64,000 bases of DNA from a virus (lineage: Duplodnaviria; Caudoviricetes), in IMG/VR virus record IMGVR_UViG_3300008262_000055. One strand, 5' to 3'. Of this stretch, positions 23,764-56,895 are shown in pieces. A program made the position numbers and the translations under genes. A model generated the notes under the pieces. The model made no database searches. It was not told where the DNA came from and was given only the letters and a program-made list of their open reading frames with translations. Position 1 is the stretch's first letter. Each line of letters opens with the position of its first letter.

Positions 23764-23790
23764 GAAATATTTAACCCTAAAATAGTAGCA

Positions 23791-23798
23791 TATAAATA
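23791..23798 (+). promoter_or_regulatory. T4-type late promoter, one of a divergent pair
   Basis: TATAAATA-TTTC-ATG; mirrored TAAATA-TTTC-ATG on the minus strand at 23761-23773. Confidence 0.65.
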
Positions 23799-23802
23799 TT
23801 TC

Positions 23803-25230
23803 ATGGTAGAAAAAAATAAAGTATTTTGGATCCAATCAACAGATACACAGTTAGGTCAATGGCAAAAACAAATTAAAGAAGTCACAGGATCTGACAGTTT
23901 TTGTGTGTTGCCATGGATACATCTAGCAACTAGACCCAATGGCGACATGAGGATATGTTGTGTAGCCAACGCATCCGGAGCCGAAAGTGGTGATTATACC
24001 GTGGGGCTCGTAAAAACAGAAAATGGTGAGCCTGCTAATTTTGGTAAAGACTTGCCCATCGATGCTTTTAATAATGACTACATGAAATCGGTACGCAAAA
24101 CAATGTTAGCAGGTGAAGTTCCTGCTAGCTGTTTAAAGTGTTATGAAGAAGAACAGCAGGGTATTGCTAGTAAACGTATATGGGAAACTGGTACTTGGTA
24201 TCTAAACGAAAAACTAGATATAGAAGAACTAATTAAAGAAACGCAAGAAGACGGATCTGTGCCTTATAAACTAAGATATCTAGATCTTAGACTTGGTCAT
24301 ACTTGTAATTTAAAATGTATTATGTGTAGTCCTCATGACAGCAGTCAATGGGTACCTGAACATAAAAAAGTTTATCCAATATTTCAAAGCCCGTTAATTA
24401 AGAAACAAATGGACTGGAGTCCTAGCCAGTTTAATAATTACTGGCATGAGAATCCTCAATTTTGGGAACAGGTATTTGATCAAATACCTAACATTCGCCA
24501 ATTGTATTTTGCCGGTGGCGAGCCTTTATTGATAAAAGAACATAGAAGATTATTAGAAGAAATTATTGATAGAGGTTATGCTGACCAAATCAGTCTACGA
24601 TATAACACCAACGGACTATTGATTAATGAAGAAATAATTTCAGTCTGGCAGAAATTTAAAAAAGTTAAAGTTGGTTTTAGTCTCGACGGCATGGAGCAAC
24701 GTGGACATTATATAAGATATCCTTTAGATTGGAATACCATAGAACAAAGTCTTAAATTATTAGATTCGGCTCCAGATAATATTCAAACTAATATTGCCTT
24801 TGCGGCACAGATTCTTAATATAAAACACGTTCCTGAGTTTATTAAATGGAAAGTAAAAAGTAATTTTAAAAAAATAAACTTTGATAAAAATGCCGCAGGG
24901 CAGACAATGGGTGGCGGATTAATGGGAGTTCATTTATTATGGATCCCTACGTGGCTAAGTCTTAGAGTATTGCCTGCTGCTGATAAAAAAGAAATTAGAA
25001 AATTGTTTACTGAACTTCAAACCTGGTTATGGGACAATTATACACACGATACAGAATTTTGGGAAACAAATCCTTACGGATGGAAACGGTGGGAGGGTAT
25101 ACTAGATTGGATGGATGCCGAGGATCATACTAATTTACTTCCAGACTTCCGTGAATATATTACTACTATGGATCGTCAGCGAGGTACTGATTTTAAAAAT
25201 ACATTTCCTGAACTAGCACATTTATTATGA
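23803..25230 (+). CDS. Radical SAM protein with N-terminal SPASM/twitch-like domain
   Basis: CVLPW...ICC...CLKC; CNLKCIMC; FAGGEP; start moved to MVEKNK. Confidence 0.9.
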   Translation: MVEKNKVFWIQSTDTQLGQWQKQIKEVTGSDSFCVLPWIHLATRPNGDMRICCVANASGAESGDYTVGLVKTENGEPANFGKDLPIDAFNNDYMKSVRKTMLAGEVPASCLKCYEEEQQGIASKRIWETGTWYLNEKLDIEELIKETQEDGSVPYKLRYLDLRLGHTCNLKCIMCSPHDSSQWVPEHKKVYPIFQSPLIKKQMDWSPSQFNNYWHENPQFWEQVFDQIPNIRQLYFAGGEPLLIKEHRRLLEEIIDRGYADQISLRYNTNGLLINEEIISVWQKFKKVKVGFSLDGMEQRGHYIRYPLDWNTIEQSLKLLDSAPDNIQTNIAFAAQILNIKHVPEFIKWKVKSNFKKINFDKNAAGQTMGGGLMGVHLLWIPTWLSLRVLPAADKKEIRKLFTELQTWLWDNYTHDTEFWETNPYGWKRWEGILDWMDAEDHTNLLPDFREYITTMDRQRGTDFKNTFPELAHLL

Positions 25231-33984: not shown

Positions 33985-35595
33985 ATGAAGATAGTTGTTG
34001 TTGGCGGAGGCAGTTCGGGATGGATGACAGCCAGTTGGTTGAACAAGTTTGTTCCAAACAGCAAAATTACTCTTGTTGAAAGTCCAGCAGTTCCAAGGAT
34101 AGGTGTCGGTGAATCGGTAACCGTACACTTAACGGAATTTATCAGAGTATTGGGAATTGACGAGCATCATTTTATGTTTCATACGGGTAGTGTTTACAAG
34201 TACGGAAATAACTTTATAAATTGGTTAGAAGGCAAAGGCGAAAACGAATTATTTACTTTTGCCTTTAACAAGAATAAAAGTCATCTTTATTCATCACCTT
34301 ACAAAGGCGTTTCTTGGGACGATCATAGAGATGTGCGAGTTGAGGAAACTAGATTAACTGACTATTGGTTAGAATTGTTTAAACAGGGAAAAACTGATAG
34401 AAACTTTAGTAAGAATTTTACATCATGGACATCATTCACTGAAGATCTAAAAGCACCGTTCGTTGACGGAATATCTTATTTGCCAAAAAATGATCTTGCC
34501 TGGGCTTATCATATTAACACTGAAAAATTTGCAGACTACTTAAAAGAGTTTGTTGCTGGCCCCGGTGGTGTAGAACATAAGATTGCACATATAAAACAAA
34601 TTATTAAATCTGGCCAGACTATAGAAAAAATTCTGTTTGATGACAACACGGAAATAACAGCAGACCTTTATGTTGATTGTTCTGGTTTTCATAGAGTATT
34701 GGTTAAAGAATTTGACAACGTTCAGTGGAAGTGGTATGAAAACAATGTAGCAGACAGTGCCTATGTTTGCCAGTTAGATTATATCGATCCAGAAAAAGAA
34801 ATGGTAAATTATACCAAGTCAATAGCTATGAACAAGGGTTGGTGTTTTGATATCAGTTTATTTCATAGGCGAGGCACAGGATATATTTTTAGCAATGATT
34901 TTATTAGCGATGATGAGGTGTTAGCCGAGTATCGTAGTAAGATACTAACTAAGCCCAAGTTTGAACCTAGAAAAATCAAGTGGGATAAAAAACGTATGTT
35001 GAACCCCGGGTTTGGTAATGTATGTGCTATAGGTATGACCATAGGATTTGTTGAGCCAATGGAGGCTAACATGTTAGGAGTAATATCTAATTCAGCATGG
35101 GAACTTACTCACGTTTTAGAGGATCATAATTTTGATACAAGAAATATAGACTGGTCACGCTACAATACTAAAATAGGACATACCTTTGATGATGTGGCAG
35201 ATTTTATTTTAGTACATTATACACTCAGTCCAAGAACTGATAATGAATACTGGGAGGAAATGCGTAGTATTGGTCGTAGATTAAAACATGAAGAACTGTT
35301 ATTAGACAAATATAATGATTATAAAAATACCATAGACGGTGCTTCTCAGAGCCTATGCTTCTTTCCAGATTACATGTGGATTGAACTAGCAGCTACTTGG
35401 AATATAGATCTAAGTAAATGGCCGTCTAAAAAAATCAGCGATGACGAACTTCGCATGGCAGAGTTACATTTTGATTATCTGAGAAATCATTTAAATCTAG
35501 CTTCTAAAAAATTCCCACAATATTATCATTATCTCAAAGACAATATTTTTAAAGGTATGACTCCGCAAGAGTGGATGGACGCAGCTAAAATCTAA
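33985..35595 (+). CDS. Flavin-dependent tryptophan halogenase-like protein (PrnA family)
   Basis: VVGGGSSGW, IGVGES, conserved K in GSVYKYG, VDCSGF, GFVEPMEA. Confidence 0.85.
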   Translation: MKIVVVGGGSSGWMTASWLNKFVPNSKITLVESPAVPRIGVGESVTVHLTEFIRVLGIDEHHFMFHTGSVYKYGNNFINWLEGKGENELFTFAFNKNKSHLYSSPYKGVSWDDHRDVRVEETRLTDYWLELFKQGKTDRNFSKNFTSWTSFTEDLKAPFVDGISYLPKNDLAWAYHINTEKFADYLKEFVAGPGGVEHKIAHIKQIIKSGQTIEKILFDDNTEITADLYVDCSGFHRVLVKEFDNVQWKWYENNVADSAYVCQLDYIDPEKEMVNYTKSIAMNKGWCFDISLFHRRGTGYIFSNDFISDDEVLAEYRSKILTKPKFEPRKIKWDKKRMLNPGFGNVCAIGMTIGFVEPMEANMLGVISNSAWELTHVLEDHNFDTRNIDWSRYNTKIGHTFDDVADFILVHYTLSPRTDNEYWEEMRSIGRRLKHEELLLDKYNDYKNTIDGASQSLCFFPDYMWIELAATWNIDLSKWPSKKISDDELRMAELHFDYLRNHLNLASKKFPQYYHYLKDNIFKGMTPQEWMDAAKI

Positions 35596-45424: not shown

Positions 45425-46030
45425 CTACATAGTAGGACCGTTCCCGTTCCTAAAACCTACGCTGCCACCTTCTGCTTCGATACGCTTGATTACATCTTCG
45501 AATAAGATAGGAGCAAAGTCTGGAGTTTGTTCTACACAGACGCAGTGATATCTAGGATCAATTTCATCGCTGTATAAAACTTCACCTGTTCTAGCATCAA
45601 CACCACGGGCTTTCTTTACACGATTTGCGTGTAAGTGTCCGTGTATGTTAACACCAAAACGTCCTAAACTTTCTGCGTGTACAGGAATATGGCTCAATAT
45701 CATTCCGTTCATAACATGGTATGCTCGTAATTCTCTAAAGTACAACCTGTACTCATCATCACGGAAGATATCATGGTTACCACGGATCAATACTTTGTCC
45801 CCGTTTAAGCGACCCAATGTTGCCATAGCCTTACGGTTAATAACAACGTCACCTAAATGATAGACTTTGTCTGTGGGCTTGACTCTTTCGTTCCAAGCCT
45901 TGATCATAGCCTCGTCCATCTCCGCAGGATCGTCCCACGGCCTTAACTTTGTAACTCCATCACTTCTGGTAAAGCGGCATACGCCAGCGTGACCGAAGTG
46001 CGTATCGCTAACTAAAAATACGCTTGGCAT
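45425..46030 (-). CDS. Calcineurin-like metallophosphoesterase
   Basis: SDTHFGH, HLGD, GNHD, SH, HGHLH. Confidence 0.9.
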   Translation of the reverse strand: MPSVFLVSDTHFGHAGVCRFTRSDGVTKLRPWDDPAEMDEAMIKAWNERVKPTDKVYHLGDVVINRKAMATLGRLNGDKVLIRGNHDIFRDDEYRLYFRELRAYHVMNGMILSHIPVHAESLGRFGVNIHGHLHANRVKKARGVDARTGEVLYSDEIDPRYHCVCVEQTPDFAPILFEDVIKRIEAEGGSVGFRNGNGPTM

Positions 46031-46451: not shown

Positions 46452-47015
46452 TTAGATGTCGCCTTCGCGTTCTCTATGTGCCCTACGCTCTGCGGCAAGA
46501 ACAAAAACTTTTTCGTTATCGTTGTTCCATTCTACAGTCTTAGGGAGAATGATCCCAAACTCGGTTGTTTGACCGTTAATAGTATGGGGCTCATTCTCAT
46601 CGTAGGTCCAACCCAAGGCCTTCATCATACGATGCTTAACCAGTAAGTTAGGACTACGGAAAGCTTCAGTATCACGGAAACCTAGCATAACACCTATCTC
46701 ACAAACAGCACCGCTACGGCAAACACCTGCGTGGCAATGAACAACAACGTTCATTCGATTTTCAAATGCGTGTTGTAGAAGTCGAACAAGCTCGTTGGCC
46801 TGGTCCTGGCTACACCGCATTGCTTCATCGAGAGCAAAGTCCTTTTCTTCAATATCCAAAAACTGAAACTGATGAACTTCTTTGAACTGATGCTTAGGAG
46901 TAGGAAAATCTCCAGGGGGATCACAGATTTGGATCAGCATGGAATTGATGCCCGCATCGATGTGAAAACCTTTTCGAATATCGCTGAGCGATACGTTTTG
47001 AATCCACGGGTTCAT
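46452..47015 (-). CDS. Cys-based (tyrosine/dual-specificity) phosphatase-like
   Basis: VHCHAGVCRS (CX5R) motif. Confidence 0.85.
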   Translation of the reverse strand: MNPWIQNVSLSDIRKGFHIDAGINSMLIQICDPPGDFPTPKHQFKEVHQFQFLDIEEKDFALDEAMRCSQDQANELVRLLQHAFENRMNVVVHCHAGVCRSGAVCEIGVMLGFRDTEAFRSPNLLVKHRMMKALGWTYDENEPHTINGQTTEFGIILPKTVEWNNDNEKVFVLAAERRAHREREGDI

Positions 47016-47024
47016 AAAACTCCT

Positions 47025-47243
47025 TTACAAACGATAAGTGATACGACCTTTGGTTAGATCGTAGGCACTGACTTCTAACTTTACACGATCGCCTAAAATA
47101 ATTTTAATCTTATGTTGCTTGAGTTTGCCACCTGTGTAGCAAGTGATGATATTGTTCATTTCATCAATTTTTACTCTATACATACTGCCAGGCAGAACTT
47201 CATCTACTGTGCCTGTTAATTCAATTAAATCATTTTTTGACAT
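47025..47243 (-). CDS. infA: Translation initiation factor IF-1
   Basis: 72 aa S1 fold: GTVDEVLPG...GK.K...[19 protein letters not shown]. Confidence 0.92.
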
Positions 47244-48111: not shown

Positions 48112-48185
48112 TGGAGCGGGGTAAGAGAATCGAACTCTCCGCTTTAGCTTGGAAGGCTAAGGTATTACCACTATACGAACCCCGC
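48112..48185 (-). tRNA. tRNA-Gly(TCC)
   Basis: Cloverleaf, loop CT-TCC-AA, encoded CCA. Confidence 0.95.
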
Positions 48186-48238
48186 ATTTAATACGTTACA
48201 CACTACTTATCCTATTATACACCGTGTGTAAGGGTGAC

Positions 48239-48312
48239 TGGTTGCGGGACCTGGAATCGAACCAGGGACTGGAGCTTATGAGACTCCTGAGATGCCGCTT
48301 CTCCATCCCGCG
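48239..48312 (-). tRNA. tRNA-Met(CAT), initiator-type
   Basis: C1:A72 mismatch, A11:U24, loop CT-CAT-AA, CCA. Confidence 0.9.
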
Positions 48313-48528
48313 ATTGTTAGTGTCTAGCTACTCCCACCACAGGAGCCCCAGACTGAGCTGTTACTCTGTCCATAACATTTCTTCTTCTGGGATGGCGTTA
48401 GACCACACCCTAGGCTGTTTTCGGTATCCCCATAACCGGGGACCGTAAGGTCGAGTCCTAGTGTACCCCCTGGTCTCTCGTTACAGGGACGCTTTTTCAT
48501 TAACGTAGAAAAAGTAAGACGGGGTCTG
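48313..48528 (-). ncRNA. Candidate structured ncRNA upstream of tRNA-fMet
   Basis: GC-rich non-coding stretch with multiple helices (CCCTG/CAGGG, CTAGG/CCTAG, GACC/GGTC, TCCCC/GGGGA, CCCAGA/TCTGGG, GCTCC/GGAGT). Confidence 0.55.
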
Positions 48529-49107
48529 TTAGATCAAACCTTCTGCTTGAAGTGTTGCCACAACTTCATCAGTTAAAGGAATCTCAGTCTTGATGTTTAA
48601 CTCAAGGATTTCGTCGTTGAGCTTTTGCTTCTGCTTCTTGAGATTCAAGATCTCAACTTTGATTCCATCTAGTTGTTCTTGGTAAAACACAGATGTTGTT
48701 ACAGTGTCATCACGACCGTAAAGGCTCGCCCGGCTTTCTTCCTTGCGATTGCGGATTTTTTCTAGTTTTCCCGAGATGACTAATTCGTCAATTCGAGTGT
48801 CATTAGAAACAAACTCCTGTAATTGAGCAGTTCTTTTTTCTATAAATGCCGCTTTAGTAAGACTTAGATCAATGCCGCTTTGGGCATTGGCTGCTCCTAC
48901 TAACCCTCTGATATTGTATAGAGCCAACAACAGTTTCTGTCTACGATTATCGTTGGCAAACAATAGGGCATTTGCTTCGCTGATAAATTTTTCAGCGTTC
49001 TGGAATTCGTTGATTTCAATACGAGATTCCAGTTTGATATTTTTTATTGCCTCAGTGATGGCATTTTGGATAGCGTTAGCTTTTCTTAGTGTAATGTTCA
49101 TTCCCAT
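48529..49107 (-). CDS. Conserved hypothetical coiled-coil protein
   Basis: 192 aa, MNITLRKAN... Confidence 0.8.
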   Translation of the reverse strand: MGMNITLRKANAIQNAITEAIKNIKLESRIEINEFQNAEKFISEANALLFANDNRRQKLLLALYNIRGLVGAANAQSGIDLSLTKAAFIEKRTAQLQEFVSNDTRIDELVISGKLEKIRNRKEESRASLYGRDDTVTTSVFYQEQLDGIKVEILNLKKQKQKLNDEILELNIKTEIPLTDEVVATLQAEGLI

Positions 49108-49325
49108 TTTCCTTTATCTTTACGTGGCAATTTTTTTAGATAATCTTCTTTAGTATAGAGACCTTCTTCAATCTCTTTTAACGCAGTTACAATTGGTCCA
49201 TTATCGGTTTTAATTTTAGGTGTTGATCCGTTTTTAAGTTCTCTAGCTCGTTGACTCGCTCCGAGAACAAGATCAAACAATCCACCAAATCTTAGTGCTG
49301 CCTTTTGAGAAGTGATTCTTGCCAT
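49098..49325 (-). CDS. rpoZ: RNA polymerase omega subunit-like protein
   Basis: MARIT...FDLVLGASQRAREL..G..P...P.VTALKEIEEG matches the RpoZ pattern. Confidence 0.8.
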   Translation of the reverse strand: MARITSQKAALRFGGLFDLVLGASQRARELKNGSTPKIKTDNGPIVTALKEIEEGLYTKEDYLKKLPRKDKGKWE

Positions 49326-49329
49326 TTGC

Positions 49330-49605
49330 TATCCTTATGTTATAATGACGGGTCAACGAAAGGTCAAGTAATAGACCGGACAATAGACAACGAAAGGGTT
49401 GTAATCTTTCTATGGCAATGTACAAAGTACAATACACAGAGGTCTATACATTTCCGATTAACAAATGACATTCTATTAGGGATCGGATCACATAAACACG
49501 GTCCAATTTCAAGTTGGATTGTAAGTTGGATTAGGCTTGGAGCCTAAGCCTGTGTCTATCCTCATCTACCCTTCGCATCACCGGTTGTGTATTGCTACAC
49601 AACAA
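49330..49605 (-). ncRNA. Candidate structured 5' leader / ncRNA
   Basis: ~280 nt between a promoter and the rpoZ-like gene; helices GTTGTGTA-GCAA-TACACAAC, TTAGGCT/AGCCTAA, CCGAT/ATCGG, ATAGACC/GGTCTAT, ACAAC/GTTGT. Confidence 0.5.
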
Positions 49606-49609
49606 AACA

Positions 49610-49638
49610 ATTATAGCATCATACTCTGTTAGAGTCAA
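49610..49638 (-). promoter_or_regulatory. sigma70-type promoter (extended -10)
   Basis: TTGACT-17 nt-TATAAT with TGn. Confidence 0.85.
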
Positions 49639-49653
49639 TGCTTTTTGGTAAAA

Positions 49654-49824
49654 TTAGTTTTTATCTTCGTCGAAACTTTTCAATAGATCAGCTTCATAGA
49701 TCGCTAATTCTTCACGAAATTGTTCTTCAGATAAACCATGCCACCCAATACACTTACCAGTAGGCGAACGGCCGCAACCACACTTACCAAATTCTTCGTT
49801 TTCAGGAACCGCTTTGATCTGCAT
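49654..49824 (-). CDS. Small CDGSH-like Cys/His protein (56 aa)
   Basis: Not in ORF track; CGCGRSPTGKCIGWH; AAGGA RBS. Confidence 0.65.
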   Translation of the reverse strand: MQIKAVPENEEFGKCGCGRSPTGKCIGWHGLSEEQFREELAIYEADLLKSFDEDKN

Positions 49825-49987
49825 CTTTATCTTCCTTATCTAAATCGTAATATTCATCTTTCATGATTGCTTCATCAAATTTTTCAGCATCAGTTTTTTT
49901 CTTTTTGCCAAATATAGCTTCAAATCTATTGTCAAATTCTTTTTGACTAACACTAAACGGTCTGGGTCTAGAACCTTTTCCTGCCAT
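49802..49987 (-). CDS. Small conserved phage protein
   Basis: MAGKGSRPRPFSV...; GGAGG RBS. Confidence 0.75.
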   Translation of the reverse strand: MAGKGSRPRPFSVSQKEFDNRFEAIFGKKKKTDAEKFDEAIMKDEYYDLDKEDKDADQSGS

Positions 49988-49988
49988 G

Positions 49989-50162
49989 TTATTCCTCCTT
50001 GGCGTCTCTTTTGCCTTTGGATATTCTAGGCTGGATTAATGATGCTAGCTCGGATTGTATTGCACTACGCTTAAATTCTCCACGCTTATGTGGATCAACA
50101 ATCGTTGCTAGAAATCTTTTGTTTTGCTTAGACATTCTAAAGTTTGCCGTGGGTTTTAACAT
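49989..50162 (-). CDS. Small basic hypothetical protein (57 aa)
   Basis: Not in ORF track; MLKPTANFRMSKQNKRFLAT...; AAGGA RBS. Confidence 0.65.
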   Translation of the reverse strand: MLKPTANFRMSKQNKRFLATIVDPHKRGEFKRSAIQSELASLIQPRISKGKRDAKEE

Positions 50163-50184
50163 TTATTTTTCCTTTTAATAAACT

Positions 50185-50276
50185 TGGTGGAAGGTGAGGG
50201 ATTCGAACCCTCGGGGCACCTTACGGCACCCCGCAGTTTAGCAAACTGCTGATTTAAGCCTCTCATCCAACCTTCC
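50185..50276 (-). tRNA. tRNA-Ser(GCT)
   Basis: Loop TT-GCT-AA, long variable arm, CCA. Confidence 0.95.
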
Positions 50277-50280
50277 ATAA

Positions 50281-50426
50281 CCATTAGTTAGTAGCACAGT
50301 TTACTATCCTCTTTGCTACCTATTGTTGGTCTGTTACACAGAACCAGTTACTAGTATCATAGGCTTCCCGCTTCAGACAAGGTTAGATCTGATCATGATC
50401 CGACGAGCTATGCTACTAACTAATGG
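50281..50426 (-). ncRNA. Candidate stem-closed ncRNA in a tRNA spacer
   Basis: 16-bp perfect terminal inverted repeat (50281-50296 / 50411-50426) with internal hairpins. Confidence 0.6.
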
Positions 50427-50507
50427 TGCCCCAGGAGAGACTCGAACTCTCACGCCTTGCGACATTGGCTTCTAAGACCAACGTGTCTACCATTCCACCA
50501 CCGGGGC
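50424..50507 (-). tRNA. tRNA-Leu(TAG)
   Basis: Loop CT-TAG-AA, long variable arm, CCA. Confidence 0.95.
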
Positions 50508-50517
50508 ATAATGTATT

Positions 50518-50546
50518 ATTATGTATTCTTTTTCTCTTTGTGTCAA
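50518..50546 (-). promoter_or_regulatory. Internal sigma70-type promoter
   Basis: TTGACA-17 nt-CATAAT. Confidence 0.7.
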
Positions 50547-50554
50547 CTATATTC

Positions 50555-50631
50555 TGGTACCCTTGAGAGGACTTGAACCTCCAAAACCTACGACCTCAAC
50601 GTAGTGCCTATACCAATTCGGCTACAAGGGC
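50555..50631 (-). tRNA. tRNA-Leu(GAG), short variable loop
   Basis: Loop TT-GAG-GT; variable region GTTTT only; CCA. Confidence 0.85.
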
Positions 50632-50632
50632 C

Positions 50633-50707
50633 TGGCCCGGCTGGAGGGAATCGAACCCCCATTTAGAGTTTAGAAGACTCCTGTCCTCTCCATTGAACGA
50701 CAGCCGG
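50633..50707 (-). tRNA. tRNA-Arg(TCT)
   Basis: Loop CT-TCT-AA, CCA. Confidence 0.93.
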
Positions 50708-50708
50708 A

Positions 50709-50858
50709 TTAACTTGGGATCATATGAGGAACATAAGGCACTGCCCTAGGGCCATGCCTTTGCTGTAACAGCATCCTTGCTTCTTCAGCAGAGTTAGCAC
50801 CAACACGATCTTTAAACTCTTTTCCGTCTACCCTAATAGTTGCTTCGTAAAGTTTCAT
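50709..50858 (-). CDS. Small hypothetical protein (49 aa)
   Basis: Start moved to MKLYEATIRV (track ORF reads through tRNA-Leu); AAGGA RBS. Confidence 0.7.
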   Translation of the reverse strand: MKLYEATIRVDGKEFKDRVGANSAEEARMLLQQRHGPRAVPYVPHMIPS

Positions 50859-50869
50859 TTTTATATCCT

Positions 50870-50953
50870 TGGTGCCCGGGGCCGGACTCGAACCGGCATG
50901 CCTTTCGACGGGAGATTTTAAGTCTCCTGTGTATACCATTTCACCACCCGGGC
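50870..50953 (-). tRNA. tRNA-Leu(TAA)
   Basis: Loop CT-TAA-AA, long variable arm, CCA. Confidence 0.95.
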
Positions 50954-50962
50954 AATGATCTA

Positions 50963-50991
50963 ATTATATGACATTAACACATGTATGTCAA
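50963..50991 (-). promoter_or_regulatory. Internal sigma70-type promoter
   Basis: TTGACA-17 nt-TATAAT. Confidence 0.85.
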
Positions 50992-51000
50992 CTGAAATTT

Positions 51001-51076
51001 TGGTGCTACCTCCAGGAATCGAACCTGGTTCAACGGTTCTTCAGACCGCCGCTATGACCACATCAGCTAAAGTAGC
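51001..51076 (-). tRNA. tRNA-Phe(GAA)
   Basis: Loop CT-GAA-GA (G37), CCA. Confidence 0.92.
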
Positions 51077-51484
51077 TTAGTCTACAGTAGTGTCAACTAC
51101 CTCTACACTAACATCTTCGGAATAGTATCCATTGCTGGAACCATACCATCGAACTGTTACACTACCTTTTCGTGTACGAAAACGATAGAATGTCCATGTG
51201 TATGATTCATCGTATTCATTTAGTGGCCCAGCTTCATAGTTAGAAACTTCTTCAGCTTCTACTAATGGTGCTCCAACTAGGTCTTCAAGATCCCCACAGA
51301 TGTCTTCTATGTAAACACTTTCGCAACAGTTTTGGTGATGTTGGAATCGTACATAGTTTGTCTTTGACAGATACAGAGTTAGTGTTTCGTCATCTGCTTC
51401 TGCTTTGTACAATGTTCGTCCTAGCAGTTCATCAAACTCTTGAACAGAACCTTTTAGTGTGTTTAATGTTTTTATTTTTTCCAT
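51077..51484 (-). CDS. Conserved hypothetical phage protein
   Basis: HHQNCCESVYIEDICGDL...YTWTFY...RWYGSSNGYYSE. Confidence 0.8.
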   Translation of the reverse strand: MEKIKTLNTLKGSVQEFDELLGRTLYKAEADDETLTLYLSKTNYVRFQHHQNCCESVYIEDICGDLEDLVGAPLVEAEEVSNYEAGPLNEYDESYTWTFYRFRTRKGSVTVRWYGSSNGYYSEDVSVEVVDTTVD

Positions 51485-51494
51485 AACAATTCCT

Positions 51495-51568
51495 TGGGGT
51501 GAAAGCGGGAATCGAACCCTGCCTTACTGTTTCACAGACAGCCGTGCAGCCACTACACTACTAACACC
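51495..51568 (-). tRNA. tRNA-His(GTG)
   Basis: G-1:C73, loop CT-GTG-AA; two acceptor mismatches and a bulged T-stem. Confidence 0.85.
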
Positions 51569-51574
51569 ATTGAT

Positions 51575-51649
51575 TGGCACCGCCGCCACGAGTTGAACGT
51601 GAACTTAAACCTTCGCAAAGTTTCGTGATATCCCTTTCACTACAGCGGT
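51575..51649 (-). tRNA. tRNA-Arg(GCG)
   Basis: Acceptor ACCGCTG/CGGCGGT, loop TT-GCG-AA, CCA. Confidence 0.85.
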
Positions 51650-51808
51650 ATCTTTTTCTAGAGCATCTTTACGCATCTTAAATGTACGATGTTCATTAGG
51701 TCGATGTACTATGAGATATTCTACTCCATCTATAACTTCGACCTTACGGACGTTGTCACAGACAAAACGCTCTCCATTCATACGATTTTTAAAAGTCATT
51801 GATTTCAT
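51605..51808 (-). CDS. Small hypothetical protein whose 3' end overlaps tRNA-Arg(GCG)
   Basis: Start moved to MKSMTFKNR with AAGGAG RBS; stop lies 45 nt inside the tRNA. Confidence 0.7.
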   Translation of the reverse strand: MKSMTFKNRMNGERFVCDNVRKVEVIDGVEYLIVHRPNEHRTFKMRKDALEKDTAVVKGISRNFAKV

Positions 51809-51824
51809 GACATTCTCCTTAAAG

Positions 51825-51902
51825 TGGCCGGCCCGGAGAGATTCGAACTCCCGACTTCCTGTTTCGAAGACAGGCACTCTAGTCCAGCTGAGTTACGGAC
51901 CG
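51825..51902 (-). tRNA. tRNA-Arg(TCG)
   Basis: Loop CT-TCG-AA, CCA. Confidence 0.93.
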
Positions 51903-51909
51903 ATATATT

Positions 51910-51983
51910 TGGTGCTCTCAAGAGGTAACGCTCCTCTGTTTCTACATTACCAATGTAGTGTAATGCTTTTATACTATAAGAGC
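51910..51983 (-). tRNA. tRNA-Thr(GGT)
   Basis: Loop TT-GGT-AA; atypical T-loop AGCGTTA; CCA. Confidence 0.85.
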
Positions 51984-51984
51984 A

Positions 51985-52058
51985 TGGCAGAGGGTAAAGG
52001 AATCGAACCTTTAATAACGGAATCAAAATCCGTGGTTATACCATTTAACTAACCCCCA
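51985..52058 (-). tRNA. tRNA-Gln(TTG)
   Basis: Loop TT-TTG-AT, CCA. Confidence 0.93.
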
Positions 52059-52068
52059 ACAAAATGAA

Positions 52069-52290
52069 TTTGTAAGCCTACGCCGCTTTTATCGTAGATT
52101 TATTCAGGACTTACCGGCCGCCTAGCCTGACCTCGAGCACGATGGATATCACTTGGGTTTCCACCAGCGTAGTCTCCGTTACAGACCCCTGCAGTTCCCC
52201 GCAGGGTGGGAGTTGAACCCATTTGCCTTTTGCGTCTAAGTACCTTCGAAGAATACTTTGAACGTGTTTCCACTTGCTGACACTTACAAA
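52069..52290 (-). ncRNA. Candidate Y-RNA/YrlA-like permuted tRNA mimic
   Basis: Terminal stem TTTGTAAG/CTTACAAA; inside, in order, T-arm TGGG-TTCAACT-CCCA, GGAA-capped 8-bp acceptor-like stem, D-arm-like GTCT-GTAACGG-AGAC. Confidence 0.6.
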
Positions 52291-52293
52291 ACT

Positions 52294-52368
52294 TGGTGGT
52301 AAAGGTGAGATTCGAACTCACACCGGGCACCGTATGAAGGTGTTGCACAACCATTATGCTACTTTACC
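52294..52368 (-). tRNA. tRNA with CAT anticodon (elongator Met or Ile2)
   Basis: G1-C72, loop TT-CAT-AC, CCA. Confidence 0.88.
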
Positions 52369-52369
52369 A

Positions 52370-52449
52370 TATAGAAACACACTCAAGTCCGCGGCTCGGA
52401 AGGCACTATACCCGCGATGGCTTATAGCCAGGCCTAGTGTGCTTTTATA
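52370..52449 (-). ncRNA. Candidate three-way-junction RNA in a tRNA spacer
   Basis: 14-nt closing stem (one mismatch, one G-U) enclosing TGGCT/AGCCA and CGCGG/CCGCG helices. Confidence 0.5.
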
Positions 52450-52524
52450 TGGTAGGGGCACCGGGACTCGAACCCGGATAGATCGGTTAAAAGCCGACTA
52501 TTCTAGCCTTTGAATTATACCCCC
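52450..52524 (-). tRNA. tRNA-Lys(TTT)
   Basis: Loop CT-TTT-AA, CCA. Confidence 0.95.
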
Positions 52525-52527
52525 GTA

Positions 52528-52602
52528 TGGTCCACGCTCTGAGAATCGAACTCAGTTCCTCCGGTTAAGAGCCGGTTACTTCGCCACTAAAGTTTAGCGT
52601 GG
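52528..52602 (-). tRNA. tRNA-Lys(CTT)
   Basis: Loop CT-CTT-AA, CCA. Confidence 0.92.
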
Positions 52603-52664
52603 TTGGTCGTAATTAAATTTGATTTAATGTGCCAACCAAGACCATTACGGGGTCAAAGTTGACA

Positions 52665-52688
52665 CTAACGTTTACCTGAACGTTTCAT
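52665..52688 (-). CDS. Micro-ORF MKRSGKR (putative leader peptide)
   Basis: AGGAG 6 nt before ATG AAA CGT TCA GGT AAA CGT TAG; followed by a hairpin and the tRNA-Lys pair. Confidence 0.5.
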   Translation of the reverse strand: MKRSGKR

Positions 52689-52784
52689 GTCATTCTCCTA
52701 TTTTAAATTATGATCAATAAAAATTATTAAAACTATAACCATGAGTAAAACTGCGACCGCCCCATTTTGTTTTCTCCTTATAAT

Positions 52785-52858
52785 TGGTTCCCAGAACAAG
52801 AATCGAACTTGTAATGACCGGTTATCAGCCGATTGTTATACCATTTAACTATCCGGGA
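52785..52858 (-). tRNA. tRNA-Ile(GAT)
   Basis: Loop CT-GAT-AA, CCA. Confidence 0.93.
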
Positions 52859-52869
52859 ATAAAACTGTC

Positions 52870-52877
52870 TATAAATA
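52870..52877 (+). promoter_or_regulatory. T4-type late promoter
   Basis: TATAAATA 5 nt before the ATG at 52883. Confidence 0.65.
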
Positions 52878-52882
52878 TCCGT

Positions 52883-53566
52883 ATGTTTAATACTGAAGCT
52901 CACATTAACGAACAATATAAAAATCAAACATTACTGTGGCATAGAGGCGACAGTGAAGAAAAGTTTGGATATAATAAATTAGACAAACGAATACAGTGGT
53001 GTCTAACTGAACATATCAATTATAAATTTAATTCTTATGGTTTTAGATCTGATGAATTTACTAATATTGATAACCTTGTATCATTAGGTTGTAGTTTTAC
53101 TTTAGGAACTGGTATTCCTTACGAATCTACATGGTCCTATATTATTAGTAAAAAATTAAATCTAGCAAATTTTAATTTAGCCATAGACAGTACTAGTGCC
53201 GACTGTTGTTTTAGAATGGCATACAATTGGATATCGCAATTAAAACCTAAGATTGTACTTTATCAAAGTCCTGATCCGTCAAGACTTGAATGGTTCGATG
53301 GTGAAAGTCGTAAACCTCACAATATGTCAGCTTCTTCTCATAACCATTCAAATTTTTATAAAGAATGGATTGTTGATGAAAAAAACCTAAAATTTAATCA
53401 TTTAAAAAATTTACACGCTATACAACACCTAGCCGAATCAGCGGGTGCTAAATTTGTCCATTTGTCTTTATCTAATATAGCTAGATTAGACTATGCTAGA
53501 GATGCAGGACATTACGGTCCTAACACCAATCGAGCTGTAGCTGAAAATATTTTACGCTCACTTTAA
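52883..53566 (+). CDS. SGNH-hydrolase-like protein, antisense within the tRNA array
   Basis: YKFNSYGFRS...LGCSFTLG...NLAI...HYG; start moved to MFNTEA. Confidence 0.75.
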   Translation: MFNTEAHINEQYKNQTLLWHRGDSEEKFGYNKLDKRIQWCLTEHINYKFNSYGFRSDEFTNIDNLVSLGCSFTLGTGIPYESTWSYIISKKLNLANFNLAIDSTSADCCFRMAYNWISQLKPKIVLYQSPDPSRLEWFDGESRKPHNMSASSHNHSNFYKEWIVDEKNLKFNHLKNLHAIQHLAESAGAKFVHLSLSNIARLDYARDAGHYGPNTNRAVAENILRSL

Positions 53567-53567
53567 T

Positions 53568-53657
53568 TGGTGGAAGCGGTGAGATTCGAACTCACGGACC
53601 CTTTCGGATCGTCTGTTTTCAAGACAGGTGCAATAAACCGGACTCTGCCACACTTCC
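53568..53657 (-). tRNA. tRNA-Ser(TGA)
   Basis: Loop CT-TGA-AA, long variable arm, CCA. Confidence 0.95.
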
Positions 53658-53663
53658 ATAACT

Positions 53664-53740
53664 TGGTACCCCTGGTCTGATTCGAACAGACAGCCAACTC
53701 CTTTTGAGAGAATCCGCACTACCAATTAGCGTACAGGGGC
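53664..53740 (-). tRNA. tRNA-Leu(CAA), short variable loop
   Basis: Loop CT-CAA-AA; variable region TGGCT only; CCA. Confidence 0.85.
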
Positions 53741-53745
53741 ATTAC

Positions 53746-53823
53746 TGGAGTGAGGAGTCGGATTCGAACCGACGGTTTTAGAGTTTTGCAGACTCTTGCA
53801 TTGGGCCTCTCTGCCATCCTCAC
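53746..53823 (-). tRNA. tRNA-Cys(GCA)
   Basis: Loop CT-GCA-AA, U73, CCA. Confidence 0.93.
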
Positions 53824-53831
53824 ATTGTCAT

Positions 53832-53923
53832 TGGTGCCTCCGGCGGGAGTCGAACCCACATTGGCCAATTATCTGTTGCACACGGGATATAAATCCGCTG
53901 TTTTACCATTAAACTACAGAGGC
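53832..53923 (-). tRNA. tRNA-Ile(TAT) with ~22-nt extra arm
   Basis: Loop TT-TAT-AT; extra region GTGCAACAGATAATTGGCCAAT; CCA. Confidence 0.8.
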
Positions 53924-53932
53924 ATAAAAACT

Positions 53933-54006
53933 TGGCTACCCACCAGGGACTCGAACCCCGACGAACAGTTTTGGAGACTGTCATGCTGCCATTACATCAG
54001 TGAGTA
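53933..54006 (-). tRNA. tRNA-Trp(CCA)
   Basis: Loop CT-CCA-AA, G73, CCA. Confidence 0.93.
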
Positions 54007-54011
54007 ATTCT

Positions 54012-54045
54012 TGGAGCGGGTAGCGAGAATCGAACTCGCGAATAA
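54012..54045 (-). pseudogene. 3' half of a tRNA (Gly-like: T-arm, acceptor strand, U73-CCA)
   Basis: TTATTC-GCGAG-TTCGATT-CTCGC-TACCCGC-T-CCA with no 5' half. Confidence 0.8.
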
Positions 54046-54118
54046 GTACACGGTACGAGAATCGAACTCGTCTTTCCGCCTTGAAAGGGCAGCGTCCTTA
54101 CCGATAGACGAACCGTGC
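54046..54118 (-). tRNA. tRNA-Glu(TTC), CCA truncated to C
   Basis: Loop CT-TTC-AA; fused directly to the tRNA remnant. Confidence 0.85.
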
Positions 54119-54124
54119 GTTGTT

Positions 54125-54198
54125 TGGTACCTCGTGACAGAATCGAACTGCCGTATCCGCCGTGTAAAAGCGGAGTTCTACCATTAAACTAACGAGGC
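54125..54198 (-). tRNA. tRNA-Val(TAC)
   Basis: Loop TT-TAC-AC, CCA. Confidence 0.93.
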
Positions 54199-54203
54199 AA
54201 TAT

Positions 54204-54282
54204 TGGTCCGAGTGGCAAGATTCGAACTTGCGACATCCTGCTCCCAAAGCAGGCGGAATGAACCAGGCTATCCTACACTCGG
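54204..54282 (-). tRNA. tRNA-Pro(TGG)
   Basis: Loop TT-TGG-GA, CCA. Confidence 0.93.
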
Positions 54283-54289
54283 AAAAACT

Positions 54290-54364
54290 TGGTGGAGGTA
54301 CGGGGATTCGAACCCCGGATTCAAGCGTGCAAGGCTAGTGTGTTCCCAACTATACCATACCCCC
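54290..54364 (-). tRNA. tRNA-Ala(TGC)
   Basis: G3:U70, loop CT-TGC-AC, CCA. Confidence 0.95.
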
Positions 54365-54368
54365 TGGA

Positions 54369-54782
54369 TTATTTGCCAGGGCGTCTTAGCACTCCTGGGC
54401 TGTCGATATCAATAAAATCTACGTTACCATTATTGAGATCCATCTCATCTGACGGACTAGATTCTATTGATACAGATATTTGAAATTCGCTTAATAATTG
54501 TTGTAGTTCAACAAATGCTGGTAATTTGGTCAACTTTAATTGAAAGTCTTTTGATTGAAGAGAACTTTCGTGATATCGTTGTATAAAACCACTCTTACCG
54601 TCATCTGCCCAGCGTACCTTTTCGTAGGGCAACATAGTGCCTTCGATTATAGGATCTGAAAATACATAGGCTAATTCCATGAATTTATCATGACCTAAGA
54701 TATGATAATTGTAATTCATAAATTCGTCAAAATTAGGAAAATCCATTTCAACGCTGGTAAAAGTAACTTTAGTTAACACCAT
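54369..54782 (-). CDS. Hypothetical protein inside the tRNA array
   Basis: 137 aa, GGAG RBS, TAAATA upstream. Confidence 0.65.
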   Translation of the reverse strand: MVLTKVTFTSVEMDFPNFDEFMNYNYHILGHDKFMELAYVFSDPIIEGTMLPYEKVRWADDGKSGFIQRYHESSLQSKDFQLKLTKLPAFVELQQLLSEFQISVSIESSPSDEMDLNNGNVDFIDIDSPGVLRRPGK

Positions 54783-54813
54783 AAAAAACTCTCCGATATA
54801 TGGTATTTATGTA

Positions 54814-54888
54814 TGGCTCCAGAGGCAGGGATCGAACCTACGACCAATTGATTAACAGTCAACTGCACTACCGCTGTGCTACTCTGGA
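54814..54888 (-). tRNA. tRNA-Asn(GTT)
   Basis: Loop CT-GTT-AA, G73, CCA. Confidence 0.95.
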
Positions 54889-54893
54889 ATATT

Positions 54894-54967
54894 TGGTGCC
54901 CCATGAGAGAATCGAACTCCCAGCCACGGATTACAAAACCGTTGTTTTACCATTAAACTAATAGGGC
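54894..54967 (-). tRNA. tRNA-Thr(TGT)
   Basis: Loop TT-TGT-AA, CCA. Confidence 0.93.
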
Positions 54968-54991
54968 GTAAAACTATATATCATTTATCAT

Positions 54992-55066
54992 TGGCGGTCC
55001 CAGGGGGTAACGATCCCCCTCTTCTGGCGTGACAAGCCAGTGTGCGTCCATGAACACCTTGAGACC
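54992..55066 (-). tRNA. tRNA-Asp(GTC)
   Basis: Loop TT-GTC-AC, G73; atypical T-loop ATCGTTA; CCA. Confidence 0.9.
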
Positions 55067-55071
55067 TAATT

Positions 55072-55160
55072 TGGTGGAAGTGGTAGGATTCGAACCTACA
55101 GCGTTTCTTATGTGGCGGATTTACAGTCCGTTGCCTTCAACCAATTCAGCACACACTTCC
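55072..55160 (-). tRNA. tRNA-Tyr(GTA)
   Basis: Loop CT-GTA-AA, long variable arm, CCA. Confidence 0.93.
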
Positions 55161-55165
55161 CTAAC

Positions 55166-55241
55166 TGGTATCGCGGACGGGAATCGAACCCGCCTAGGCA
55201 GCGTGAAAGGCTGCTGACCTAACCCAGAAGTCCACCGCGAT
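55166..55241 (-). tRNA. tRNA-Glu(TTC), second copy
   Basis: Loop CT-TTC-AC, CCA; sequence distinct from the 54046 copy. Confidence 0.92.
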
Positions 55242-55252
55242 GTAAAATTTAA

Positions 55253-55490
55253 ACACTCTCCGCTATGCTTTTAGACGCCGTCGCAGGGCGAATGAAGAGT
55301 GTGTATTAAAGCATTCTAATAACGCCTGTTACGCAGTACTACGCTATGAGTGTAGCCGTCCCTATAGAATGCTTTAATACGCTACCATTATACTCTCTAC
55401 GTTGTCGCCATAGATTTCATCCGGTAGGCCGCCCGTTCACTCCATGTTTTAAGTGCGGAGCCAGGACCTCGTTTCCTGTATATTCACACT
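55253..55490 (-). ncRNA. Candidate structured RNAs at the head of the tRNA array
   Basis: ACACTCT/AGAGTGT-closed unit (55253-55302), 16-bp perfect IR unit (55303-55380), multi-hairpin unit (55381-55490). Confidence 0.5.
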
Positions 55491-55498
55491 TTGTACTA

Positions 55499-55663
55499 TT
55501 AGTTTACACTAAACGTCGGCTGTTTGGCTAACGCTTCGTGGTACACTCTAGCACGTTCAAACTTATCTTGAATAAGTTTTTGAAGTTGCTCTTTTGTAAG
55601 AACTGCTTCATAAGCCTGTTCAACAATCCGTTCATTTAATTTTGCGTAATCTATCTGTTCCAT
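55499..55663 (-). CDS. Small hypothetical protein (54 aa), first gene past the attenuator
   Basis: Not in ORF track; MEQIDYAKLNERIVEQAYE...; AAGGA RBS. Confidence 0.7.
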   Translation of the reverse strand: MEQIDYAKLNERIVEQAYEAVLTKEQLQKLIQDKFERARVYHEALAKQPTFSVN

Positions 55664-55675
55664 TTTTCCTTTTAA

Positions 55676-55711
55676 TAAACAAAAACCCCAGGGTTTTTAA
55701 TCCTGGGGTCC
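55676..55711 (-). terminator. Intrinsic terminator of the putative attenuator
   Basis: ACCCCAGG-9 nt-CCTGGGGT followed by TTTTGTTTATT. Confidence 0.85.
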
Positions 55712-55737
55712 TTTTGAAGTTTGAGTTTACTTTTTTG

Positions 55738-55881
55738 TTAACTCATGATCTCCATGGACCCCGGGTGTAGCTCTGGTGTGCGATCATATGATAGACTATT
55801 AATCGCAAACCAAGCAGAGGGCATTACGCCTCCTAACTGGGCTATCGATTTACATTGTCTATGTAATGATGTCGTTTTCAT
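55738..55881 (-). CDS. Putative attenuator leader peptide, 47 aa, containing all 20 amino acids
   Basis: Not in ORF track; MKTTSLHRQCKSIAQLGGVMPSAWFAINSLSYDRTPELHPGSMEIMS; 37 different codons; 3' end complementary to the terminator 5' arm. Confidence 0.75.
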   Translation of the reverse strand: MKTTSLHRQCKSIAQLGGVMPSAWFAINSLSYDRTPELHPGSMEIMS

Positions 55882-55929
55882 TTGCTTTCTTTATCCTTTG
55901 TTAACACGCTATTTCTAACGCATGTCTTA

Positions 55930-55958
55930 ATTGTACATTTATTTAGTCTCGCTGTCAA
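55930..55958 (-). promoter_or_regulatory. sigma70-type promoter P2 of the leader/tRNA array
   Basis: TTGACA-17 nt-TACAAT; TAAATA in the spacer. Confidence 0.85.
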
Positions 55959-56011
55959 CCACTATTTTTGTTTTGGCAAAAAAGTTTTTCTGCGTTCCTA
56001 ACCATGTCCTT

Positions 56012-56040
56012 ATTATATTGTCTGTTTATTTATATGTCAA
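56012..56040 (-). promoter_or_regulatory. sigma70-type promoter P1 with embedded T4 late motif
   Basis: TTGACA-17 nt-TATAAT; TATAAATA at 56027-56034. Confidence 0.9.
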
Positions 56041-56069
56041 TGATTTTTTTGTAAACTAATGTGGCATTT

Positions 56070-56312
56070 TTACAACATTTGATCAGTCTGTACTAGTAAG
56101 TGCTTACCAACTTCAAACAATCCCACACCGCCGACAAGATCGAGACAGCTAGCATGTATTTGGGCGTCTCCGTCTCTTCTTAATGAACACGCAACAAATT
56201 CTGTTATCTCGCCTTCGTCGATTTGCCGTTGTATTTCTGCTAACACTTCTAGCATTGATTCTTTGCGTTCTTCATCTTTTTTCTGTTTTGGATCTAATGA
56301 CACAACGTTCAT
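56070..56312 (-). CDS. Hypothetical protein
   Basis: 80 aa. Confidence 0.7.
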   Translation of the reverse strand: MNVVSLDPKQKKDEERKESMLEVLAEIQRQIDEGEITEFVACSLRRDGDAQIHASCLDLVGGVGLFEVGKHLLVQTDQML

Positions 56313-56319
56313 ACGGGCC

Positions 56320-56895
56320 TCATTCTAAAATGTGATCTGCTACTTTGAGTTCAACTGCTTCGTCTGCGGTCAGATATACGTCACTGGCAGGCAAAAGTTT
56401 TTTCTTGATAACACTAGGTGCTAACCCGGTGGCTTCTTTCAAAACTGCTACCATTCGTTCGTTACAGAGATCGTTTTCTTTCATAGATGCTTTGAGATCA
56501 TGATATTTGCCTTCGGTATTTTCTGTGAACTGATGGCACATGAAACTGGTATTCTTAGCAGCGTACCGCTGACCTTTGTCGCCTGCTGAGAAAATAAGGA
56601 ATGCGGCACTCATTACAGCACCAATACCGATACAGCGGATGACATGTGGACTGGCTTGCATAACATCGATTAATCCAAATGCTTGATATAAGTCTCCGCC
56701 CGTACTGTTAATGTAGATCGTGAGAATCTTTTCTTTAGACGTATCTAAATTTTCGTAAACTAACCATTTTACCACAGGGCCTACGGAATCTTCGTTGATT
56801 TCCCCGTTGATAAAATGTGTGTGATTTTCAAGTAGTTTGAGATCAATCCGATCTTCGGCTATGAAATCTTCCAGTTTTTTCACACGATGCTCCAT
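56320..56895 (-). CDS. clpP: ClpP-like protease proteolytic subunit
   Basis: IYINSTGG, catalytic S in AVMSAA, H in FMCHQ. Confidence 0.85.
   Translation of the reverse strand: MEHRVKKLEDFIAEDRIDLKLLENHTHFINGEINEDSVGPVVKWLVYENLDTSKEKILTIYINSTGGDLYQAFGLIDVMQASPHVIRCIGIGAVMSAAFLIFSAGDKGQRYAAKNTSFMCHQFTENTEGKYHDLKASMKENDLCNERMVAVLKEATGLAPSVIKKKLLPASDVYLTADEAVELKVADHILE

Follow-up and report, generated by a model that had tools for sequence, protein, structure and literature searches.

A short leader reading frame that samples the whole decoding set overlaps a putative transcription attenuator ahead of a giant-phage tRNA array

The 64,000-nt stretch of DNA analysed here (the window, IMG/VR record IMGVR_UViG_3300008262_000055) belongs to an uncultured lake-water giant phage and carries on its minus strand a large tRNA array, preceded by a promoter, a 47-codon open reading frame (ORF) and an intrinsic terminator (Table 1). 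The end of the ORF holds the 5' arm of an antiterminator helix that competes with the terminator, and we refer to the whole arrangement as the leader. Our analysis indicates that it is probably an attenuator read by translation, under selection to cover the whole decoding set, and that it modulates transcription into the tRNA module. In silico, this rests on the anatomy of the locus, on selection for completeness of the encoded amino-acid set, on covariation and mutual exclusivity of the two folds, and on linkage of the leader to tRNA arrays. An earlier prediction from the sequence alone (the original prediction) had described the element as a pan-amino-acid ribosome-stalling attenuator; its promoter, its 47-codon ORF, its count of 37 different sense codons, 32 of which fall in codons 1-37, and the presence of all 20 amino acids by codon 37 proved exact.

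Relatives were collected from IMG/VR in two ways. The neighbouring ClpP-like gene (PF00574) served as an anchor and led to 46 loci on contigs of up to 364 kb, and a search with the terminator motif gave at least 120 further loci; since the terminator served as the search pattern, its conservation among these loci is a matter of ascertainment. Ninety-five distinct tRNA-linked leaders from IMG/VR contigs, with a mean pairwise peptide identity of ~38%, make up the family set. A sigma-70 promoter scoring 9-12 of 12 lies within 110 nt of the leader ATG in every one of them, and scores 11-12 in 89. Altogether the family comprises more than 150 clusters at 50% identity and is entirely uncultured.

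By itself the leader of the window is only mildly unusual. Its twentieth amino acid is reached exactly at codon 37 (Glu), and under the phage's own composition a single sequence would hold all 20 with P ~0.03 for 47 residues, ~0.003 for 37 and ~0.0015 for 35; among other ATG-initiated ORFs of 42-52 aa in the DNA fetched, 2.3-2.5% hold all 20. The oddity to which the original prediction had pointed is thus a mild one for one sequence, and it gains its significance from being retained in relatives. All 20 residues are present in 88 of the 95 homologous leaders (93%), which are 35-50 residues long, so that the expectation of complete leaders despite low peptide identity held; two relatives fit the full set into 35 residues. 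Independent draws from the pooled composition of the family would give 3.2 complete leaders in 95, shuffling within alignment columns gives 17.7 (at most 31 in 2000 shuffles), and simulation along a tree gives 18.8 +/- 7.3 (at most 42 in 300). The simulation used an estimated tree, column-specific profiles, a complete ancestor and a rate matched to the observed nearest-neighbour identity, and at a rate eightfold too low it still never reached 88.

The observed completeness exceeds the column-based nulls because single-copy residues relocate yet persist. Cys, for example, has a mean of 1.06 copies spread over 21 alignment columns, none of which holds it in more than 16% of members, and it is absent from 2% of leaders against 33% expected with independent columns; Tyr, His, Phe and Lys likewise shift position and are seldom lost. 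A pair-exchange (chimera) test of co-adaptation gave p = 0.996 by Fisher's combination, with most nearest-neighbour pairs uninformative, and the tree simulation was used instead. For an independent sample we searched 1.84 billion cluster representatives with a profile and obtained 161 hits, 145 of them short; 102 of the short hits (70%) are complete and 38 more hold 19 residues, Cys being missing most often. This argues strongly that completeness of the leader is kept by selection, if not absolutely. In one relative (L073) Glu and Tyr are missing from leader and array alike, and in its sister (L063) both are found in the leader only, a comparison that draws on few complete arrays.

Codon content favours the view that tRNA species, not amino acids, are sampled. 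Among the 86 members with a located antiterminator arm, both codon boxes are present upstream of it for Leu in 77, for Arg in 71, for Ser in 84 and for Ile (ATA together with ATY) in 75, compared with 54.5, 36.3, 65.5 and 49.5 when synonymous codons are re-dealt across the family. A stricter null, in which codons are shuffled within column and amino acid, gives 67.4 for Leu, 76.0 for Ser and 68.1 for Ile, all below the observed numbers; for Arg there is no excess over this within-column null, its two boxes sitting at two conserved positions. Of the 86 members, 85 have a Met codon inside the ORF, and 57 have the complete range of 24 decoding classes, which is defined by the 20 amino acids, the second boxes and elongator Met. 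For 24 of the 28 anticodons in the array of the window a matching codon occurs within codons 1-37 of its leader. To sense amino-acid starvation a single codon for each residue would suffice, so the presence of both boxes speaks for sensing of single tRNA species.

The last codons of the ORF take part in an RNA switch. In the window CCCGGGGTCC (55765-55756) pairs at nine of ten positions with GGACCCCAGG (55711-55702), which is also the 5' arm of the terminator, and the helix extends inward until the TAA stop codon lies near its apex. This extended helix is the minimum-energy fold (-27.3 kcal/mol, z -6.3), the terminator hairpin reaching -16.7 kcal/mol; the whole leader folds with z -5.7 and again adopts the antiterminator as its minimum-energy fold. 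Across the family RGGGTCC/GGACCCY is paired in 97% of cells, and one arm pair covaries (G-C in 50 members, A-U in 34, G-U in 4), a signal that exceeds every one of 500 shuffles and every slid control. The arm pairing and extended helix of the original prediction are thereby confirmed, as is the mutual exclusivity of antiterminator and terminator, the GGGGTCC/GGACCCC complementarity being kept in relatives, where a G-C pair is replaced by A-U in compensatory fashion. In all 86 members with a located arm the outer helix is part of the antiterminator fold, which averages -23.8 kcal/mol and is more stable than the terminator (average -13.8 kcal/mol). The inner part of this fold varies in sequence from member to member; even so, it folds more stably than shuffled interiors in 84 of the 86 (median z -3.7). 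Free RNA folds to the antiterminator in 88 of the 95 leaders, so loss of translation, as by a start-codon knockout, should raise read-through. A further hairpin within the ORF, H1, pairs in 64-94% of cells across the family without compensatory changes; it is weakly supported as a possible pause or structural element, and we claim no function for it.

The effect of ribosome position was modelled by folding the transcript up to the terminator stem with a mask spanning -15 to +12 relative to the A-site codon. At each position up to stop-12 the antiterminator is favoured in ~90% of members, with the limit at about stop-11, and the terminator wins in 93-100% of members from stop-10 to stop-2 and in 88% at stop-1, a boundary that depends on the footprint assumed. 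In the window the change from antiterminator to terminator falls between codons 37 and 38, where the amino-acid set completes. Stalling in the leader would, on this model, alter read-through. The element shares with leader-peptide attenuators a 5' ORF, an intrinsic terminator (55711-55681, a GC-rich stem of 8-10 bp followed by a U-tract), an antiterminator that shares one arm with it and overlaps the end of the ORF, and codons placed where a stall would be permissive; codon runs are missing, each amino acid occurring about one to three times instead.

Several properties suggest that the leader ORF is translated in vivo. In alignments of the leaders indels come in multiples of three and the frame is open in all homologues. 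The ratio of non-synonymous to synonymous differences (pN/pS) in nearest-neighbour pairs is 0.44 for codons 2-37, and for the last ten codons it is 1.22, with lower pS. The GGGGTCC arm is read as Pro-Gly-Ser or as Arg-Val-Arg depending on the relative, and such use of two frames indicates that the stretch is conserved as nucleotides. Initiation is of two types. In the type of the window the ATG lies 44-52 nt past the -10 box with AAGGA upstream (here at 55898-55894, after a 5' hairpin); in the leaderless type, found in ~20 of the 95 relatives (for example L003-L005, L023, L050, L063 and L064), the ATG lies 6-10 nt past the -10 box with neither a 5' untranslated region (UTR) nor a Shine-Dalgarno sequence. 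The other members carry a UTR of ~45 nt with a covarying 5' hairpin, whose stem varies in sequence among aligned relatives and retains its pairing. The switch is retained under both modes of initiation.

Codon choice in the leaders differs from that in phage genes. Glu is encoded by GAG in 92% of cases versus 19% in phage genes, T-ending codons are avoided in four-fold boxes (GCT 3% versus 42%, CCT 4% versus 42%) and favoured in two-fold boxes (TAT 94%, CAT 90%, GAT 89%). The bias is real and may reflect either a choice of slow codons or constraint by RNA structure, with which it is confounded. Metatranscriptome contigs from four studies include pieces over 55681-55903 and the downstream region, and none over 55971-56400, and show only the presence of leader-like RNA or DNA in RNA libraries. 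Several pieces stop at 55681, the end of the U-tract; contigs show neither ends nor levels, homology to relatives stops at the same place, and these stops were not used as evidence.

Linkage of the leader to tRNA genes is tight. Among ClpP-anchored loci the leader is found in every one with a tRNA array behind the ClpP gene and in none without. For 123 of the 140 terminator matches listed a same-strand tRNA lies 170-1006 nt downstream; 16 of the remaining 17 run off contig ends, and the last, L054, was rejected as a family member, its 2.5 kb of downstream sequence holding no tRNA and an unrelated ORF. As a negative control, the same motif gave 14 matches in prokaryote genomes, 13 of which are unrelated terminators without leader or tRNAs. 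Every member with enough sequence downstream has a tRNA array there, and no other downstream feature is common to all of them. A homologous ORF of 50-65 aa follows ~20 nt past the terminator in 69 of the 95 relatives; in the window its 54-aa counterpart, helical and carrying the shared motif LT.EQ..KLI.DK.ERA, would be the first protein made from read-through transcripts and has no match in Pfam, PHROG or Atlas. No minus-strand promoter scoring 9/12 or more lies between 55676 and 55241 in the window, and the first tRNA block would thus depend on read-through.

We propose that the strong sigma-70 promoter starts a transcript that opens with the ORF of ~47 codons. With no ribosome, or with a ribosome held anywhere in codons 1 to ~37, GGGGTCC and the helices behind it would pair with GGACCCC as soon as the latter is made; the antiterminator would then block the terminator, and RNA polymerase would continue into the small ORF, the structured spacer and the tRNA array. 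A ribosome that reaches codons 38-47 or the stop codon would cover the 5' half of the antiterminator helix, leaving GGACCCCAGG to pair with CCTGGGGT, and transcription would stop at the U-tract. As every amino acid, the second boxes of Leu, Ser and Ile and elongator Met lie in the permissive zone, shortage of any single charged tRNA should raise read-through. The outcome would be a feedback loop that replenishes the tRNA supply, and its benefit would presumably be tRNA homeostasis.

Attenuators of this general layout are familiar. In the enterobacterial leaders trpL, hisL, leuL, thrL and pheL and the multivalent ilv leaders, between one and three cognate amino acids occur in runs, and the design has four segments, such that untranslated RNA terminates through 1:2 pairing. 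Like them, the phage leader has a short promoter-proximal ORF and exclusive hairpins that share one arm, the ribosome position picking the fold; unlike them, it has each residue about once and three segments, untranslated RNA is predicted to read through, and the output is tRNA and not biosynthetic enzymes. The his/trp-type geometry of the original prediction therefore stands as an attenuator layout, and fails in that there are three segments with no trp-style 1:2 pre-emptor. The T-box riboswitch has no ORF and binds one specific uncharged tRNA directly. It too reports tRNA state and controls terminator read-through, ahead of genes for tRNA charging or amino-acid supply, whereas the phage leader would read all tRNAs indirectly via ribosome speed. 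Rfam covariance models (T-box included) gave no match over 55242-56000 at E values up to 1.

By analogy, the closest published system appears to be the whiB7 (wblC) upstream ORF (uORF) attenuator of mycobacteria and other Actinobacteria (PMC10274678). There, too, a long mixed uORF precedes an intrinsic terminator, efficient translation leads to termination, and stalling leads to an antiterminator and read-through. The uORF of M. smegmatis holds 19 of the 20 amino acids, its content sets which starvations are sensed, and deleting an amino acid abolishes the response to starvation for that same amino acid (PMC10274678). The uORF is variable between species, with several residues missing in M. 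tuberculosis, and is enriched in Ala (PMC10274678). In contrast, the phage leader keeps completeness and both boxes of several amino acids by selection, its output is tRNA genes where the whiB7 system yields a transcription factor that serves drug resistance and alanine supply, and the two share no sequence relationship. Ala makes up 5.4% of the composition of the leader family, and the marks of a whiB7 attenuator (an actinobacterial genome, a whiB7-family gene, an Ala-enriched uORF) are missing here. In the literature searched we found no account of leader or attenuator control of phage tRNA genes, and promoters, leaders and terminators go unmentioned in a 2026 survey of such genes.

A number of observations weigh against a translation-read switch for the tRNA module, or limit it. 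Consensus promoters lie inside the array of the window at 50991 and 50546, and 26 of the 95 relatives (27%) carry an 11-12/12 promoter ~35 nt before the first tRNA. The switch can thus only modulate tRNA output, and the gating of the array claimed by the original prediction holds in so far as the leader occurs only where an array follows and does not hold in the sense of a sole gate. Covariation is confined to one outer pair. RNAalifold found no consensus structure in the codon alignment and recovered only the terminator from a MAFFT alignment of the 3' part, because the inner helices vary in length and are misaligned; per-sequence folds were used in its place. In 70 of 81 members all 20 amino acids are reached before the arm begins, versus 15.9 +/- 3.5 with residue order shuffled, a comparison that is not fully independent, as the GC-rich tail could hardly encode rare residues. 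With the mask used, the set is complete at or before the computed switch point in 39% of members and within one codon of it in 70%, and the last sensed codons of the window, Asp33-Glu37, fall at the footprint edge of a stalled ribosome. When a ribosome occupies the stop codon, its mask falls just short of the arm, and at that position the model relies on steric exclusion. From 7% (terminator sample) to 30% (profile sample) of leaders lack one or two residues, mostly Cys. The peptides also share the conserved motifs AKQxGFMPxYW, Trp24 and DRTPE, of which Trp24 and DRTPE leave room for a role at the peptide level. Near and distant DNA searches and protein searches with the leader and the 54-aa ORF found nothing among isolate phages (50,697 phage records), and deposited phage genomes gave no match to the window.

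Alternatives accept parts of this picture and read the rest differently. The same attenuator could sense global translation capacity (ribosome availability, initiation, coupling, ribosome-targeting toxins), its varied ORF acting as an average message. Any loss of translation would turn the switch on, since free RNA favours read-through; the whiB7 uORF responds to many ribosome inhibitors besides starvation (PMC10274678); and residues present once or twice without runs would be expected to give weak sensitivity to a single shortage. An average message, however, needs no full set of 20, and selection for completeness is left unexplained by it, as are the relocation of single-copy Cys, Tyr, His and Phe, both boxes of Leu, Ser and Ile, and the position of the whole set upstream of the arm; we consider this explanation unlikely, if worth keeping in mind. 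A real switch could also regulate what directly follows the terminator, namely the small ORF, the structured RNA or both, or the terminated leader transcript could act in trans. The small-ORF homologues are common, a pre-tRNA promoter would make tRNA transcription partly independent where it occurs, and terminated trpL RNA that works as a small RNA offers a published precedent (PMC7968998). But 26 of the 95 members are without the small ORF, six of these having the pre-tRNA promoter; the array alone is present downstream wherever enough sequence is at hand, the leader is missing from relatives with no array at the locus, and a leader with all 20 amino acids and both codon boxes best matches a tRNA output. 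A target other than the array seems to us improbable.

A further explanation would be an ordinary small phage protein followed by a plain terminator, with the all-20 composition and the alternative helix as by-products. Gene callers do label the leader ORF a hypothetical protein, and the motifs AKQxGFMPxYW and DRTPE and a pN/pS below 1 are what such a protein would display. Against it, completeness is far above every null, tree-aware included, the tail is read in two frames with a pN/pS above 1 and is therefore RNA-constrained, the stop codon always lies inside a helix that competes and covaries with the terminator, and the leader has no match in Rfam, Pfam or PHROGs and no family or fold match. 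We regard this explanation as very improbable, and keep the translation-read attenuator ahead of the tRNA module as the probable one.

What such an attenuator would be for admits a more specific suggestion, which we put forward as tentative and on balance doubtful. The 24 decoding classes (20 amino acids, the second boxes of Leu, Arg, Ser and Ile, and elongator Met) might provide surveillance of each isoacceptor, detecting loss of a single host tRNA, including cleavage by an anticodon nuclease, and inducing replacement tRNAs as a counter-defence. It is known that tRNAs supplied by phages allow infection to succeed despite tRNA-cleaving defences, both PARIS (PMC11464382) and retron effectors (PMC11555353). 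These papers describe the tRNAs themselves and no inducing sensor, and phage tRNAs that replace destroyed host tRNAs are the setting first proposed for the leader; by analogy, a counter-defence role against anticodon nucleases such as PrrC and PARIS is plausible.

The coordinates of the locus are collected in Table 1. The upstream promoter P1 is a second consensus promoter, 82 nt upstream of the leader promoter P2, and tandem promoters are found in relatives too. The equivalent of the mini-ORF between them is fused in frame to the leader in some relatives, which gives versions of 62-80 residues. The pre-tRNA promoter of relatives (for example L003, L005 and L158) sits in a CACACTCTC/GAGAGTGTG inverted repeat; at 55245-55310 (-) the window keeps the inverted repeat and the promoter has decayed, with a poor -35 box and TTAAAT as the -10 box.

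Table 1. Features of the leader and tRNA locus in the window
Feature	Coordinates	Strand	Basis or remark
Upstream tandem promoter P1, TTGACA-17-TATAAT, 12/12	56012..56040	-	consensus scoring
Mini-ORF, 16 codons, leaderless-type	55955..56005	-	start 6 nt past P1 -10 box; TGA overlaps P2 -35 box
Leader promoter P2, TTGACA-17-TACAAT, 11/12	55930..55958	-	consensus scoring
5'-terminal hairpin of leader transcript	55903..55926	-	-7.8 kcal/mol, z -3.2
Leader ORF, 47 codons	55881-55738	-	translation
Putative sensing zone of leader ORF, codons 1-37	55771..55881	-	all 20 amino acids; both boxes of Leu, Arg, Ser and Ile; internal Met
Hairpin H1 within ORF, TGG...CCA, codons 24-36	55774..55812	-	-14.0 kcal/mol, z -3.8
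Leader ORF tail, codons 38-47 and TAA (55740-55738), inside antiterminator helix	55738..55770	-	folding, pN/pS
Antiterminator 5' arm CCCGGGGTCC, core 55762-55756	55756..55765	-	pairing, covariation
Inner helices and apical hairpin of antiterminator, stop codon near apex	55712..55755	-	folding
Shared arm GGACCCCAGG	55702..55711	-	partner: antiterminator arm or terminator 3' arm
Terminator 3' arm CCTGGGGT and U-tract (55685-55681)	55679..55693	-	hairpin -16.7 kcal/mol
54-aa ORF, first gene past terminator, own AAAGGA ribosome-binding site	55499..55663	-	open reading frame
Structured spacer, 257 nt, small ORF to first tRNA	55242..55498	-	holds decayed promoter copy
tRNA array, 30 genes (ARAGORN) to 31 (Rfam)	48112..55241	-	all 20 amino acids, 28 distinct anticodons

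Just past the end of the array lies a homologue of translation initiation factor IF-1 (PF01176, 64 bits; 47025-47243, -), which makes the locus look like a translation module. It is adjoined by a dual-specificity/tyrosine-phosphatase-like protein with an HCxxGxxRS motif and weak Pfam matches (46452-47015, -), and a calcineurin-like metallophosphoesterase is found nearby (45425-46030, -). A 25-aa ORF with 19 residue types at 46751-46828 was rejected as a chance product, as it lies out of frame inside the phosphatase gene. Elsewhere in the window three genes, at 33985-35595 (+), 20936-22204 (-) and 23731-25230 (+), encode a tryptophan-halogenase-like protein (PHROG 2928, E 2e-92) and a pair of radical-SAM-like proteins. 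Among the relatives, L177 has a leader of 48 residues with all 20 amino acids that ends at ~5890 of a 6.2-kb contig; this contig is binned with a Polynucleobacter metagenome-assembled genome, which is a weak hint of the host or else a binning artefact.

The regulation of phage tRNA arrays, and the reason why large phages carry near-complete sets, are open questions, and current work treats phage tRNAs as constitutive aids to codon usage or as decoys against tRNA-cleaving defences. The leader described here would be the first attenuator defined by coverage and not by enrichment, and also the first case in which tRNA genes are proposed to be under leader-peptide control. It would provide a compact, naturally occurring device that senses decoding competence. 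If the proposed surveillance of single isoacceptors were true, giant phages would carry a built-in monitor of the host translation apparatus.

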